A stretch of 64,000 nucleotides of DNA from contig CAXXVO010000002.1 in the NCBI GenBank assembly GCA_963422645.2, forward strand, positions 160,001 through 224,000. The letters run 5' to 3'. Positions 52,180-56,467 of the stretch are shown here, one piece after another (the stretch's first letter is position 1; every line of letters begins with the position of its first letter). The stretch is from Alphaproteobacteria bacterium. Its GTDB lineage: Bacteria; Pseudomonadota; Alphaproteobacteria; UBA828. Under the pieces are notes generated by a model. It was not told the origin of the DNA and searched no databases. It saw only the letters and a program-made list of their open reading frames with translations. The translations under genes and the position numbers were made by a program.

Positions 52180-52935
52180 ATGAAGCTCGCCGGCAAGGTC
52201 GCCATTGTGACGGGAAGCTCGCGCGGCATCGGCGCGAGCATCGCCCGAGGCTTCGCTGCGGCGGGCGCGCGGCTCGCCATCGTCGCGAACACGCGGCTGG
52301 AGCGCTCGCAGGCGGTCGTCGGCGAGATCGAGGTGGCCGGAGGAGAGGCCAAGGCGTTCGCGGCTGATCTCGCGCGGATCGCCGAGTGCGAGCGGCTGGC
52401 CGGTGCGGTTGTCGACGCCTTCGGAACCGTCGACATCCTCGTGAACAACGCCGGCGTCTACATCCGATCGCCGATCGAAGAGGCCACCGAGGAGCAGTGG
52501 AGCGCGCAGGTCGACCTCAACCTCAAGGGCACCTACTTCATGACCAAGGCGGTCGTGCCGACGATGAAGGCGAAGCGATCCGGCAAGATTATCAACATCA
52601 CCTCGACGTTCGGCCTCGTCGGCGCTGCGGACTGCAGCATCTATTGCATCACGAAGGCCGGGCAGCTGAACCTGACCAAGGCCTTGTGCCTGGAACTCGC
52701 GCGCCACGGAATCAACGTCAACTCGCTGGCGCCGGGCGGGGTCAAGACCGACATGACCGAGGCCTTTCGCGCGCAGACCCAGCTCAAGGAACGTGTGGAC
52801 GAGCTGACGCCAACAGGCACTCACTTTCTCGACCCGTCAGAAGTTGTGGGCGCCGCCGTGTTTCTCGCCTCATCCGCCTCTGACTCGGTGCACGGAGCGA
52901 ACCTGGTGGTCGACGGGGGCTGGACCGCCTGGTAG
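52180..52935 (+). CDS. SDR oxidoreductase
   Basis: TGSSRGIG, NNAG, YCITK, VDGGW. Confidence 0.9.
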   Translation: MKLAGKVAIVTGSSRGIGASIARGFAAAGARLAIVANTRLERSQAVVGEIEVAGGEAKAFAADLARIAECERLAGAVVDAFGTVDILVNNAGVYIRSPIEEATEEQWSAQVDLNLKGTYFMTKAVVPTMKAKRSGKIINITSTFGLVGAADCSIYCITKAGQLNLTKALCLELARHGINVNSLAPGGVKTDMTEAFRAQTQLKERVDELTPTGTHFLDPSEVVGAAVFLASSASDSVHGANLVVDGGWTAW

Positions 52936-53145
52936 CGATCGCTTTGAGCGCTTCCGCTTCACACGAAAGCGCTCTCGCACTTTGCCGTGAAACAGATTCT
53001 GGCGAGGGACGCGCGGTGACGCTCCAACCCCGAGGTCACGGCGTTGGCTGAGACCGCCAGGGTCGGCGCGGCGGAGACGAGCGGTGGACTTCCCCGATGT
53101 GGTCCGAAGCGGTCCCGCGTAGCCGGCTGACGAGATGCGGGCCGC

Positions 53146-54396
53146 TCAGGCGGCCTTGAGTTCCGCGCCTACGGGCTCGATGTAGCCGTAGCGGCGGAGC
53201 ATGCGGATCCACCGAGGAGCGTTGCGCTTGACCATCAGAGCGTCGTAGTCGGCCGTGCGGTCGTAGTAGGGCCTGCCGGTCTTGAGCACCACATAGATGA
53301 TGCGCAGCATCTTGTGAGCGCCGGCGACGATGGCGCGCTTGTAGCCGCGCCGGGCGGCGAGGGCGCGGTGATGAGCCTCGAACTGGCACCCCTTGGTTCG
53401 GGCCGCGCCGTGGGCACACTCGACGAGGCAGGCGCGCAGGGTCTTGGAGCCCATGCGGGTGCGTGCGTTGCGGCGCTTGCCCCCGCTCTCGTTGTTGCCG
53501 GGGCAGAGCCCGGCCCAGGCGGCGAAGTGCTCCTTGGAGGCGAACACGCCGATGTCGGGGCCGATCTCGATGAGGATGGTCGAGGCGGCGGTGCGGTCGA
53601 TGCCGGGGATGGTGGTCAGCAGACGGAGCTGCTCCTCCCACGGTGTCATCTGCCCGTCGATCTTCCTGGTGTAGGACGCGATGCGCGCCTCAAGCGCGTC
53701 ATGCTCCTCCAGCAGGTCGTTGAGCATGAAGCGGTCGTTGTCGCCCAGGCTCAGGGTGAGCGCCTCGCCGAGCCCCTCCAGCTTGTTCGCAACGTGGCTG
53801 GTGAGCGAGGCGAGGATGACCTCGCGCGCCGTCCCCTGCGCCAGGCCGTCGAGGATCTTCCGGCCGTTGACGCCGAAGACGTCGGAGAGGATGCCGCCGA
53901 TGCGCGCACCGGCGCGGTCGATGATCTTCTGCACGCGGTTGCGCACGGCGGAGCGCTGCCTGACCAGGACGCGGCGCTGGCGGCTCAGTGCGCGCAGCTC
54001 CCGGAACGGCTCAGGCGGAACGTGGGAAGGCGTGCAGAGCCCGAACTGGCACACGCAGGCCAGCCACACGCTGTCCGCCACGTCGGTCTTGCGCCCCTTC
54101 AACTGCTTCACCTGACGCGCATGCACCAGGATCGCCTCGAGCCCGGCCGCCTCCAGGGCCGCGAAGGGCGCCTGCCAGTAGACCCCGGTCCCTTCCATCA
54201 CCGCAGCCTCGACGCCGTGACCGGTCAGCCACGCGACCATCTCCTCCAGACCGCTCGGCAGCGTGCCGAAGCAGCGCGTCTCCACCACCGGCTCACCCTC
54301 GCCCTCACAGAGGCGAACCGTCGCGGTGATCTCCATCTTGTGCACGTCCAGACCCGCCGCGCGCGGCCGGACGACGTGCAAGCCTTCCGTCTTCAT
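53146..54396 (-). CDS. IS110 DEDD recombinase/transposase
   Basis: AGLDVHK, VMEGTGVYW, KTDVADS, IPGI, PGNNESGG; GAGGAGG RBS. Confidence 0.93.
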   Translation of the reverse strand: MKTEGLHVVRPRAAGLDVHKMEITATVRLCEGEGEPVVETRCFGTLPSGLEEMVAWLTGHGVEAAVMEGTGVYWQAPFAALEAAGLEAILVHARQVKQLKGRKTDVADSVWLACVCQFGLCTPSHVPPEPFRELRALSRQRRVLVRQRSAVRNRVQKIIDRAGARIGGILSDVFGVNGRKILDGLAQGTAREVILASLTSHVANKLEGLGEALTLSLGDNDRFMLNDLLEEHDALEARIASYTRKIDGQMTPWEEQLRLLTTIPGIDRTAASTILIEIGPDIGVFASKEHFAAWAGLCPGNNESGGKRRNARTRMGSKTLRACLVECAHGAARTKGCQFEAHHRALAARRGYKRAIVAGAHKMLRIIYVVLKTGRPYYDRTADYDALMVKRNAPRWIRMLRRYGYIEPVGAELKAA

Positions 54397-54458
54397 CGCC
54401 TTCCTCCTCATTTGCGCTCTCGCCACGGCGGCGTACGATCACGCCGTGGCATCGCCAC

Positions 54459-54641
54459 GGTGGAGGCGGGGACAGCGGTCGGAAGAACACGCATCCGACG
54501 AGCGGGTGCGGTGCAATTTGCCGCGCGTCCACGGCCACGGGCCGGGTACAATACGGGGTGCGGAGCCGGCCGCCGGAAGCAGTTTTGTCATCGGGAACTA
54601 CGTCACCGATATAACGACGCTCACACGTCCCCACCTCCGCC
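54459..54641 (-). ncRNA. Putative IS110 bridge RNA
   Basis: Closing stem 54459-54473/54627-54641; two hairpin-centred loops with segments matching target and donor junctions. Confidence 0.65.
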
Positions 54642-54785
54642 AATACCCATCCTGACACGGCAAATGGGTGCAAGCGCAAGGAAAACGTCAGCCGAACCGC
54701 TCCTGTTTCATGCCACGGGGTGGCTCAGAACCGCGGGGACCATGACTGTTTTGTCGCTCACGGCAGCAGGCGATTCTGCAATTCT

Positions 54786-54835
54786 GCGCGCCTACCGGCG
54801 CGACCGGCGCCTCCGCGTCGCGCCGGTAGGCGCGC
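54786..54835. repeat. Perfect 19-bp-stem hairpin with GTAG on both strands (REP-like)
   Basis: GCGCGCCTACCGGCGCGAC...GTCGCGCCGGTAGGCGCGC; CCGGCGCCTCCGCG also occurs at 26646. Confidence 0.6.
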
Positions 54836-54976
54836 GATGGCGCCGCAGGAGCGGCGGGGCGCGGCCTGCACGGGGCTCTTTGACCGCGCCTTGCCGGCCC
54901 GGCGCCGCATCGGCGATACTGCCGGCCCTCCTCCGCAATTCCGCGACCAATCCGCCGACCGAAGGGACACTGCACC

Positions 54977-56467
54977 ATGAGCACTGCCGCTGCCGAGATC
55001 GTGAAGGGCGTCTTCCTCCAGGACCCGACGCTGTTCCGCCAGCAATGCTACGTAGACGGCCAGTGGCTCGACGCGAAGTCCGGGCGGACCACCGACGTGG
55101 TGAATCCGGCGGACGGTAAGGTGATCGGCACGGTGCCGGCGCTCTCCGCCACCGAGACCCGCACCGCCATCGAGGCCGCGAACCGGGCCTTCCCCGCCTG
55201 GCGCGCCAAGACCGCGAAGGAGCGCGCCCAGATCCTCCGCAAGTGGTACGACCTGATGATGGCGAACCAGGAGGACCTCGCCATCATCATGACCGCCGAG
55301 CAGGGCAAGCCGATGGCGGAATCGCGCGGCGAAATCGGCTACGGCGGCTCCTTCATCGAGTGGTTCGCGGAGGAAGGCAAGCGCGCCTACGGCGACGTTA
55401 TCCCCCCGCATCTCAACGACCGGCGGATCGTGGTCACCAAGGAGCCGGTGGGCGTCGTCGGCATGATTACGCCGTGGAACTTCCCGAACGCCATGATCAC
55501 GCGCAAGGCCGGGCCCGCACTCGCCGCAGGCTGCACCGTGGTCTCGCGGCCGGCGACGGCGACGCCCTTCTCCGCGCTTGCGCTCTGCGAGCTGGCTGAG
55601 CGCGCCGGCATCCCGCGCGGCGTCTTCAACGTGATCACCGGCCCCTCGGGCGAGGTCGGCGGCGAGATGACCGCCAACCCCATCGTGCGCAAGCTCTCCT
55701 TCACCGGTTCGACCGATGTGGGCAAGGTCCTGCTCGAGCAGTGCGCAAGCACGGTCAAGAAGGTCTCGATGGAGCTCGGCGGCAACGCGCCCTTCATCGT
55801 CTTCGACGATGCAGACATGGACTCGGCCGTGACCGGTGCCATCGCATCCAAGTACCGCAACACGGGGCAGACCTGCGTCTGCGCCAACCGCTTCCTGGTG
55901 CAGGGCGGCGTCTACGACACCTTTGCCGAGAGGCTGGCCGAGGCCTCCTCCAAGCTTGTCGTCGGACCCGGCCTCGAAGGCGAGACCCAGCAGGGGCCGC
56001 TCATCGACGAGAACGCCGTGGCCAAGGTCGAGGAGCACATTCAGGACGCGGTGGACAAGGGGGCGGAGGTGATCCAGGGCGGCAAGCGCCACTCCCTCGG
56101 CGGCAATTTCTTCGAGCCGACTGTCATCGCCAACGTGAACACGCAGATGAAGGTCGCCCGCGAGGAGACCTTCGGCCCGCTCGCGCCACTCTTCCGCTTC
56201 GAGACCGATGACGAAGCGGTGCAGCTCGCCAACGACACCGAGTTTGGCCTCGCGGCCTACTTCTACAGCCGCGACATCGGGCGCATCTGGCGCGTGGCGG
56301 AGCAGCTCGAGTACGGCATCGTCGGCATCAACACCGGGATCATCTCGACCGAGGTGGCCCCCTTCGGGGGCATGAAGGAGTCCGGCATCGGCCGCGAAGG
56401 CTCATACTACGGCCTCGATGAGTTCCTCGAGGTCAAGTACATGTGCATGGGCGACATCGACAAGTAG
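54977..56467 (+). CDS. gabD: NAD(P)-dependent succinate-semialdehyde dehydrogenase
   Basis: ITPWNFP, FTGST, MELGGNAP, GQTCVCANR, EETFGP. Confidence 0.93.
   Translation: MSTAAAEIVKGVFLQDPTLFRQQCYVDGQWLDAKSGRTTDVVNPADGKVIGTVPALSATETRTAIEAANRAFPAWRAKTAKERAQILRKWYDLMMANQEDLAIIMTAEQGKPMAESRGEIGYGGSFIEWFAEEGKRAYGDVIPPHLNDRRIVVTKEPVGVVGMITPWNFPNAMITRKAGPALAAGCTVVSRPATATPFSALALCELAERAGIPRGVFNVITGPSGEVGGEMTANPIVRKLSFTGSTDVGKVLLEQCASTVKKVSMELGGNAPFIVFDDADMDSAVTGAIASKYRNTGQTCVCANRFLVQGGVYDTFAERLAEASSKLVVGPGLEGETQQGPLIDENAVAKVEEHIQDAVDKGAEVIQGGKRHSLGGNFFEPTVIANVNTQMKVAREETFGPLAPLFRFETDDEAVQLANDTEFGLAAYFYSRDIGRIWRVAEQLEYGIVGINTGIISTEVAPFGGMKESGIGREGSYYGLDEFLEVKYMCMGDIDK

Follow-up and report, generated by a model that had tools for sequence, protein, structure and literature searches.

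Does the non-coding DNA upstream of an IS110-family transposase gene encode a bridge RNA and, if so, which DNA would that RNA read? The locus lies in a 64,000-nucleotide stretch of an alphaproteobacterial genome (contig CAXXVO010000002.1); this whole stretch is called the window, and coordinates are those of the window unless another contig is named. An initial annotation, made from this single copy, had described an IS110 element with readable bridge-RNA guides. We conclude, with a probability of about 85%, that the locus is an IS110-family insertion sequence (IS) that encodes a DEDD/serine recombinase and, upstream of it on the same strand, a structured bridge RNA of about 185 nt. The guides, the core and the ends differ in part from those first described. 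The three main features are the following.

52982..54749, minus strand: IS110-family IS, 1768 bp with one copy of the AA core counted; it begins with A54749 (right donor side, RD) and ends with C52984 (left donor side, LD) followed by the core A52983-A52982
53146..54396, minus strand: transposase (bridge recombinase) gene, ATG at 54396, 416 aa
54459..54643, minus strand: conserved structured RNA core of 185 nt, the proposed bridge RNA, delimited with alignment A1, RNAalifold and covariance model R1

The element encodes an IS110 recombinase

The 416-aa open reading frame matches DEDD_Tnp_IS110 (E 1.8e-23) and Transposase_20 (E 4.5e-21) in Pfam, both beyond the curated cut-offs, which bears out the original assignment to IS110. 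The protein combines a DEDD RuvC-like domain with a Tnp domain and has distant matches in the PDB to IS621 (8wt6, E 6.3e-16) and ISCro4 (9t56). Its Ser304 aligns with the serine of the IS621 YESG motif and is unchanged in seven homologs. The non-coding left end, which contains the RNA region, is 358 nt long and the right end 165 nt. A short AA(A) core at both junctions, defined ends and the lack of long terminal inverted repeats are as expected for IS110. None of the 120 best relatives listed by a protein cluster search carries an element name; among plasmid records the best relative (45% identity) is labelled just 'IS110 family transposase', with no element name.

A conserved structured RNA precedes the transposase gene

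The RNA region is conserved upstream of homologous transposase genes at 57 loci (42–97% protein identity) and on 15 metagenome contigs. The 57 loci come from metagenome-assembled genomes of several phyla, labelled Alphaproteobacteria, Thalassobaculaceae, Binatia, Vicinamibacterales, Pseudomonadales and Azotimanducaceae. From 18 of the sequences, RNAalifold predicted three elements, the closing helix P1, the helix P2 and the hairpin P3; the covariance model R1 was built with P1, P2, P3 and P5. R1 gave 42 matches in 43 sources, all of them upstream of transposase genes and on the same strand. It gave no match in 150 other genomes sampled across the class, which is a result for a sample and not proof of absence. 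In P1, P2, P3 and P5 together, 96.2% of the cells are paired, compared with 41–52% when the partner strand is slid; 15 of the 31 pairs vary on both sides, and no measure was attained in any of 500 shuffles. The helices contain many G-U pairs, so the RNA strand is that of the gene. The left end of the element thus holds a structured non-coding RNA on the gene strand, with the following parts.

54628-54640 with 54460-54472, minus strand: closing helix P1, 12 pairs (9 changed on both sides), 92.3% paired
54618-54622 with 54577-54581, minus strand: helix P2, which encloses the target loop and P3; 97.3% paired, two pairs changed on both sides
54592-54608, minus strand: hairpin P3, 100% paired, two pairs changed on both sides
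54488..54550, minus strand: donor domain, which the long-range helix P6 closes and which holds P5, the donor guide and P7
54526-54550, minus strand: hairpin P5, 98.6% paired
54488-54513, minus strand: hairpin P7, 73% paired in this alignment

P1 corresponds to the long closing stem of the initial annotation, where it was given as 15 bp. The two similarly built loops proposed with it differ from the structure that covariation supports: the local hairpin at the centre of the first of them is 77% paired and has no compensatory change, whereas the long-range helix P6 that replaces it is 87% and 96% paired and has two compensatory pairs.

A separate hairpin-rich stretch of about 40 nt (54412-54457, minus strand) lies between the RNA core and the ribosome-binding site in most alpha-type copies. 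It is missing from two loci (L026 and L060) and from all gamma-type copies, and metatranscriptome contigs from runs X15 and X18 skip 39–44 nt there.

Empty sites and tandem junctions place the core at AA(A)

The host genome (5.9 Mb in 23 contigs) was searched for copies of the element. It contains 48, about 100% identical and all including window positions 54754..52981, which together make up about 1.4% of the genome. They are spread over 37 places, of which 33 have distinct flanks and six are head-to-tail arrays (of 2, 2, 2, 3, 3 and 5 copies). The tandem periods are 1768 and 1769 bp, and the 11 tandem junctions in the assembly read GGCAAACAGTC (six junctions) or GGCAAAACAGTC (five junctions); both kinds sometimes occur within one array (host contigs C5, C8, C10, C11 and C16). 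Five genomes of relatives yielded few extra close copies.

For three insertion sites, exact empty counterparts were found within other copies of host repeats.

Empty site 1: ...CTC ACAAAA TCCCGG
Empty site 2: ...GGA ACAAAA CGCTTC
Empty site 3: ...TGA ACAAAG TGCATG

When filled, the third site has ACAAAAC... at its left junction and ...GGCAAG TGCATG at its right one; by comparison with the empty site, the exchange therefore took place within the first two A's. Because of the empty sites and the tandem junctions, the core is AA(A). The target is (G)ACA-AA-(A/G), and the joined donor ends are CACGGC-AA-ACAGTC. In the window copy the two core dinucleotides are placed as follows.

54750..54751, minus strand: left-junction core AA, preceded by the target bases G54755, A54754, C54753 and A54752
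52982..52983, minus strand: right-junction core AA; A52981 is the first target base to the right

Among the 33 distinct sites, the target logo is A at -3 (29 sites), C at -2 (33) and A at -1 (32), then AA, then A (24) or G (8) at +1. G at -4 (17/33) and T at +2 (14/33) are weakly enriched, and all other positions are at background. The specified target in the host genome is thus about 6–7 bp long, and 907 ACAAA[AG] sites are unoccupied.

These results do not agree with the core first proposed, an AGT shared by both junctions. The right flank begins with AGT at 2 of the 33 distinct sites, so that the AGT of the window copy is a coincidence of that copy. The element boundaries drawn from it are contradicted by the empty sites and tandem junctions, and the derived target, GACAAAAC-AGT-GCGAG, and circle junction, CGGCAA-AGT-CATGG, are wrong since the core is AA(A).

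Three junctions depart from these forms. The left junction of one copy (C21:59019) reads ACGAAAC. Right junctions end in ...GCATA rather than ...GCAAA at two places, C6:66367-68140 (site s7) and L072. At s7, 104 paralogous empty sites read ACAAGGATA and the filled site is apparently two bases short; this junction may be an imprecise or mismatched-core event.

Part of the target loop follows the left flank of the insertion site

The target loop is the internal loop between P2 and P3, and its two strands are the following.

54582..54591, minus strand: left target guide strand, the 3' strand of the loop, AUGACAAAAC, which holds GACA, the core AA and AC
54609..54617, minus strand: proposed right target guide, the 5' strand of the loop, UCGUUAUAU, which would pair with the top-strand bases immediately to the right of the core

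Across homologs the 3' strand consists of 4–5 variable nt followed by AAAC. The variable bases agree with the left flank of the insertion at 69 of 95 positions, over 19 guide variants (shuffle mean 26.4, maximum 45; none of 20000 shuffles attained the observed value). Flank position LT-1 (the left-target base next to the core) and RNA column 65 are identical in 29 of 29 cases. This segment is thus equal to the left target plus the core and covaries with the flank, as a bridge-RNA guide should. Examples are given by locus.

L052: guide UGUUG, left flank CGTTG
L040: guide ACGC, left flank ACGC
L046: guide CGCU, left flank CGCT
L047: guide UGAG, left flank TGAG
L055: guide CUCC, left flank CTCC
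L059: guide GUCU, left flank GTCT
L038: guide CACC, left flank CACC
L026: guide GCAAA, left flank GCAAA
L122: guide GUAUCC, left flank GTATCC

The agreement is incomplete at L113 (3 of 5), L094 (2 of 5) and L119 (two bases). The AAAC that follows is the core AA plus the first two bases of the element, AC. In L108, the sole family with AAUC in the RNA, the element starts AA-TC. We propose, on the basis of this one variant, that the two bases after the core act as a handshake guide; such guides are described by Hiraizumi 2024 (PMC11208158), and the L108 pattern is the one that such a guide would give.

The initial annotation had pointed to an 8-nt match between the RNA region and the left flank. 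The match is real (GACAAAAC at 54582-54589 and 54748-54755, both on the minus strand, its only two occurrences in the window), and it does behave as a left target guide that covaries in homologs. It was, however, not eight bases of flank, and consists of 4 nt of flank, the 2-nt core and the first 2 nt of the element. At least two occurrences of GACAAAAC were found in 14 of 100 shuffles of the window, and CGGCAAA, the second match then described, occurs 13 times in the window against 9.0 expected. Such single-sequence matches are not beyond chance, and their significance therefore comes only from the comparison of homologs.

The 5' strand of the loop was compared with the right flank. The longest Watson–Crick runs summed to 63 over 21 families (shuffle mean 46.4, maximum 62; 0 of 20000 attained it), and a looser earlier score was attained by 4 of 20000 shuffles; the fit is weak in the genome of the window. 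The clearest cases are listed as guide and top strand.

L113: GAAGGU / ACCTTC
L045 group: CCGCAU / ATGCGG
L109: CGGU / ACCG, plus one more pair
L114: CGGGU / ACCCG

Several single-copy families fit poorly (L040, L037 and L108, with runs of 1). Read from the sequences, the order of the target loop appears to be right guide, hairpin, left guide.

The right guide had first been placed elsewhere, in the segment CGCAC.

54558..54562, minus strand: CGCAC, an invariant P6–P5 linker, not a programmable guide

Its letters are indeed the reverse complement of 52976-52980, but CGCAC is constant in all alpha-type RNAs while their right flanks differ, and GTGCG is found at 1 of the 33 sites; the segment that does track the right flank is found on the 5' side of the left guide. 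The original proposal as a whole was of an IS621-like RNA with an AGT or GT core, the target given above, a 5' left guide and the 3' CGCAC as right guide in one loop. All of its letters are present in this one copy. The refuted core and boundaries, the constancy of CGCAC and the poor pairing of its loop-centre hairpin leave it with practically no chance of being right. Its description of a new bridge recombinase ortholog is fair, considering that the RNA has no Rfam match and the relatives are unnamed, except that the core is AA or AAA.

Two other explanations grant that the RNA structure is real. In the first, the segment before AAAC recognises the resident left junction, for excision or copy-out only, and the protein itself picks the target through ACAAA. 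The segment fits the left junction at 8 of 8 positions, better than it fits any pre-insertion target, only ACA-AA-A is conserved in the host genome, and donor-only 'half-match' reactions are reported for IS621 (10.64898/2026.08.31.748434). However, the 4–5 variable bases track host flanks that differ between families (the 19 guide variants), and because the guide bases follow differing flanks a fixed specificity of the protein is excluded; moreover, in the IS621 model one RNA segment would serve both reactions. We consider this explanation very improbable. In the second, the conserved structure is a leader that regulates the transposase, as an attenuator or an antisense target, and the matches to flanks and ends result from common descent. 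The start codon follows the region directly, an extra hairpin stands ahead of the ribosome-binding site in alpha-type copies, and Durrant 2024 (PMC11208160) cites an earlier proposal that small RNAs modulate the expression of IS110 transposases. Descent does not account for the flank matches, which need targeting because the bases concerned are not part of the element and vary from copy to copy; furthermore, the structure and the guide positions parallel those of proven bridge RNAs and seekRNAs. A leader is slightly less probable still.

The donor domain matches the right end of the element

The second match of the initial annotation, CGGCAAA at 54517-54523 and 52981-52987, is the left donor guide and covaries with the DNA in homologs.

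54517..54523, minus strand: left donor guide CGGCAAA, equal to the right end CGGC plus the core AA plus A
52984..52995, minus strand: right-end subterminal arm CTGTTTCACGGC, an inverted repeat of GGCATGAAACAG in the left end (about 54701-54712)

At the variable G/A position, the donor guide and the right end agree for 27 of 27 distinct RNAs, and a third state, CAACAA, is present in both the RNA and the right end of L069 and L070. The left donor guide thus equals the right end plus the core, as in known bridge RNAs.

The inverted repeat is exact over 8 nt (CTGTTTCA at the right-end tip and TGAAACAG in the left-end interior), and its left arm lies about 40 nt inside the element. In 18 families, the bases before TTTCA covary with those after TGAAA, with the states G, A and C and with up to three extra bases. 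The repeat could base-pair as a helix where a transcript spans the junction or a circle is single-stranded, or its arms could be paired protein sites.

Proposed mechanism and evidence against it

By analogy with IS621 and seekRNA elements, we infer a mechanism that starts from a circle or a tandem copy in which the joined ends read CACGGC-AA-ACAGTC. The 11 head-to-tail junctions of the assembly and one X15 contig of a relative, from an RNA library, in which the right end (52981) is joined to the left end, may reflect this form; a free circle is hypothetical. The RNA would be produced from the left end, and the only hints of this are metatranscriptome contigs of relatives (90–99% identity), which cover the gene in four runs and the RNA region in runs X15, X18 and X19. 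The recombinase would bind the RNA, of which the first internal loop would read the target and the second domain the joined ends, and would presumably carry out the strand exchange. The 5' strand of the target loop, UCGUUAU, would pair with the top-strand bases that directly follow the core on its right, and the last two bases of the 3' strand would match the start of the element in a handshake-like manner. In practice, the target used in the host genome would be ACA-AA-A/G, with a weak T next. Since no site fully matches both guides, the insertions look like left-half matches. The left junction that results, ACA-AA-AC, would still fit the short target and may feed the tandem arrays; reinsertion there would yield the tandem junction with three A's, and the four-A form is beyond simple reinsertion.

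This leads to a tentative model of a left-end bridge RNA class that would combine the gene order of IS110 with the guide order of IS1111 (right guide, hairpin, left guide plus handshake). Its few target bases (4 + AA + 1) would result in half-site recognition and in a usable target at the element's own left junction, and hence in tandem arrays and genome-wide bursts, and the covarying right-end/left-end helix could exist only where a transcript spans the junction or a circle is single-stranded. Taken with all its parts, this model is possible, with the odds somewhat against it.

Several results weigh against the bridge-RNA reading and the guides assigned above. First, in the RNA itself, the pairing percentages come from an alignment (A3) that was fitted to the model and thus favours the structure, and the fold of the donor domain (P6, P7) is less secure than that of the target loop. 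Folded as a single sequence, the left end is no better than its shuffles (z = -0.32), and when 52500-55300 was compared with Rfam, with E-values up to 1 allowed, only two chance-level matches came up, to mir-598 and P10. Second, the shuffle tests overstate independence because the families are related. Third, the right guide is weak in the host genome, with a mean fit of 1.58 of 6 at occupied sites compared with 1.21 of 6 at unoccupied ACAAA[AG] sites (p about 0.018); the left-guide positions -4 to -6 are not enriched there (p 0.80), and the site that would fit both guides, ACAAAATAAC, does not occur in that genome (0 sites). Fourth, the donor-guide rule is broken by L076 (a decayed RNA, 45 bits) and by L072, which are distant or decayed copies, and neither inspection nor the mutual information of the RNA columns with the variable triplet that follows AAAC gave a convincing right donor guide. 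Finally, the RNA-library contigs are those of relatives, come from libraries that can hold DNA and carry neither end nor strand information, and a scan of a tandem junction gave no sigma-70-like promoter and no intrinsic terminator.

Genomic setting and host repeats

The window copy is flanked by the end of a short-chain dehydrogenase gene (52180-52935, plus strand) and by an aldehyde dehydrogenase gene (54977-56467, plus strand). One copy elsewhere (C16:23518-25259) carries a single substitution and lacks 20 nt of the left end (element positions 304-323). The DNA of the left guide (element positions 166-173, window 54582-54589) is itself a perfect short target, GACA-AA-AC, and an insertion there was found in 0 of the 48 copies.

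The host genome is rich in repeats: those at sites s24, s7, s4 and s21 have 195, 104, 36 and 24 spanning copies, respectively. A palindromic family resembling repetitive extragenic palindromes (REP-like), with dozens of copies, lies next to the element (54786-54835; relatives on C9, C13, C21 and C22) and ends in ...CTGCCGTGAGCGA(C/T)AA.., and 3 of the 33 insertions are at one identical point of it. This repeat was considered as the cognate full target and ruled out, its guide fit being no better than that of other sites. The element is also nested in several host repeats. Among them is a repeat of about 2.25 kb, three copies of which contain the element at an identical position, as 1, 2 and 3 units in tandem. 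A single locus assembled as 1, 2 and 3 copies was ruled out: only about 550 and 1700 bp of flank are common, and because of this limited shared flank the three places are taken as copies of the repeat, of which one further copy is empty.

A second IS110-family element, with 36% protein identity, is present in at least 13 copies in one relative genome (G004; L086, L090 and others), some of them adjacent, and also in the relative G002 (L092, L096 and L099). R1 gave no match on the two copies searched (L086 and L092); the second element therefore carries a different RNA or none.

Significance of the family

The principle is not new. A preprint catalogue reports 32,190 bridge RNAs in 86 models, with 12–40 programmable bases and many non-canonical folds (10.64898/2026.10.21.760802). 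Tandem duplication of whole IS110 modules has been described (10.64898/2026.08.14.744561), and insertion of a left-half-match type has been reported for IS621 off-targets (10.64898/2026.08.31.748434). The combination of an upstream RNA with a top-first guide order is possibly an undescribed variant.

Bridge recombinases are under development as programmable genome-writing tools, and their natural diversity bounds the design space. The present family adds a second core, AA, and a compact target loop with a guide order reversed relative to IS621 despite the position of the RNA upstream of the gene. It also offers a natural example of how a genome fares with guides that are very short or half-matched, with 48 copies, tandem arrays and some 900 candidate sites. 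For annotation, the ends of the repeat are now fixed, and the covariance model detects the RNA ahead of transposase genes whose products are as little as 42% identical.

Comparison with known systems

The element resembles IS621 and ISCro4 in several respects. Its recombinase has the DEDD and Tnp domains and is distantly matched to the solved structures; the long left end, upstream of the gene, encodes the RNA; one guide is the same as the left target with the core and another the same as the left donor with the core; both junctions have a core of two nucleotides; and the two guide bases after the core match the other DNA partner, in the handshake style. It differs from both in the size of the protein (416 aa compared with 326–341 aa, the match having an E-value of just 6e-16), and neither a right donor guide nor a sigma-70 junction promoter was found here. 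In addition, the core is AA instead of CT, the left guide has only 4–5 variable bases, and the donor guide lies in a three-way junction and not in a simple internal loop. In the loops of IS621, the 5' side pairs with the bottom strand and the 3' side with the top strand, according to Durrant 2024 (PMC11208160); the target loop described here is reversed, with the top-strand guide on the 5' side and the bottom-strand guide on the 3' side.

This order is that of the IS1111 type. In the seekRNAs of ISEc11, ISKpn4 and ISPa11, as presented by Siddiquee 2024 (PMC11187229), a segment complementary to the top strand comes first and is followed by one complementary to the bottom strand, and the non-coding region with its RNA usually lies on the downstream side of the transposase gene. 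Here, the same top-first order is found, together with a covarying inverted repeat near the ends, but the RNA is upstream of the gene, in a left end of 358 nt (165 nt for the right end). The 8-nt repeat has its left arm about 40 nt inside the element, in a non-subterminal position, whereas IS1111 elements are recognised by subterminal repeats of 7–17 bp. These affinities to IS110 and IS1111 were judged by RNA position, guide order and repeats rather than by phylogeny. In its general behaviour, as distinct from compared sequence, the element is also like the IS492-like members of IS110, which have a short target of about 5–7 bp and many insertion sites.

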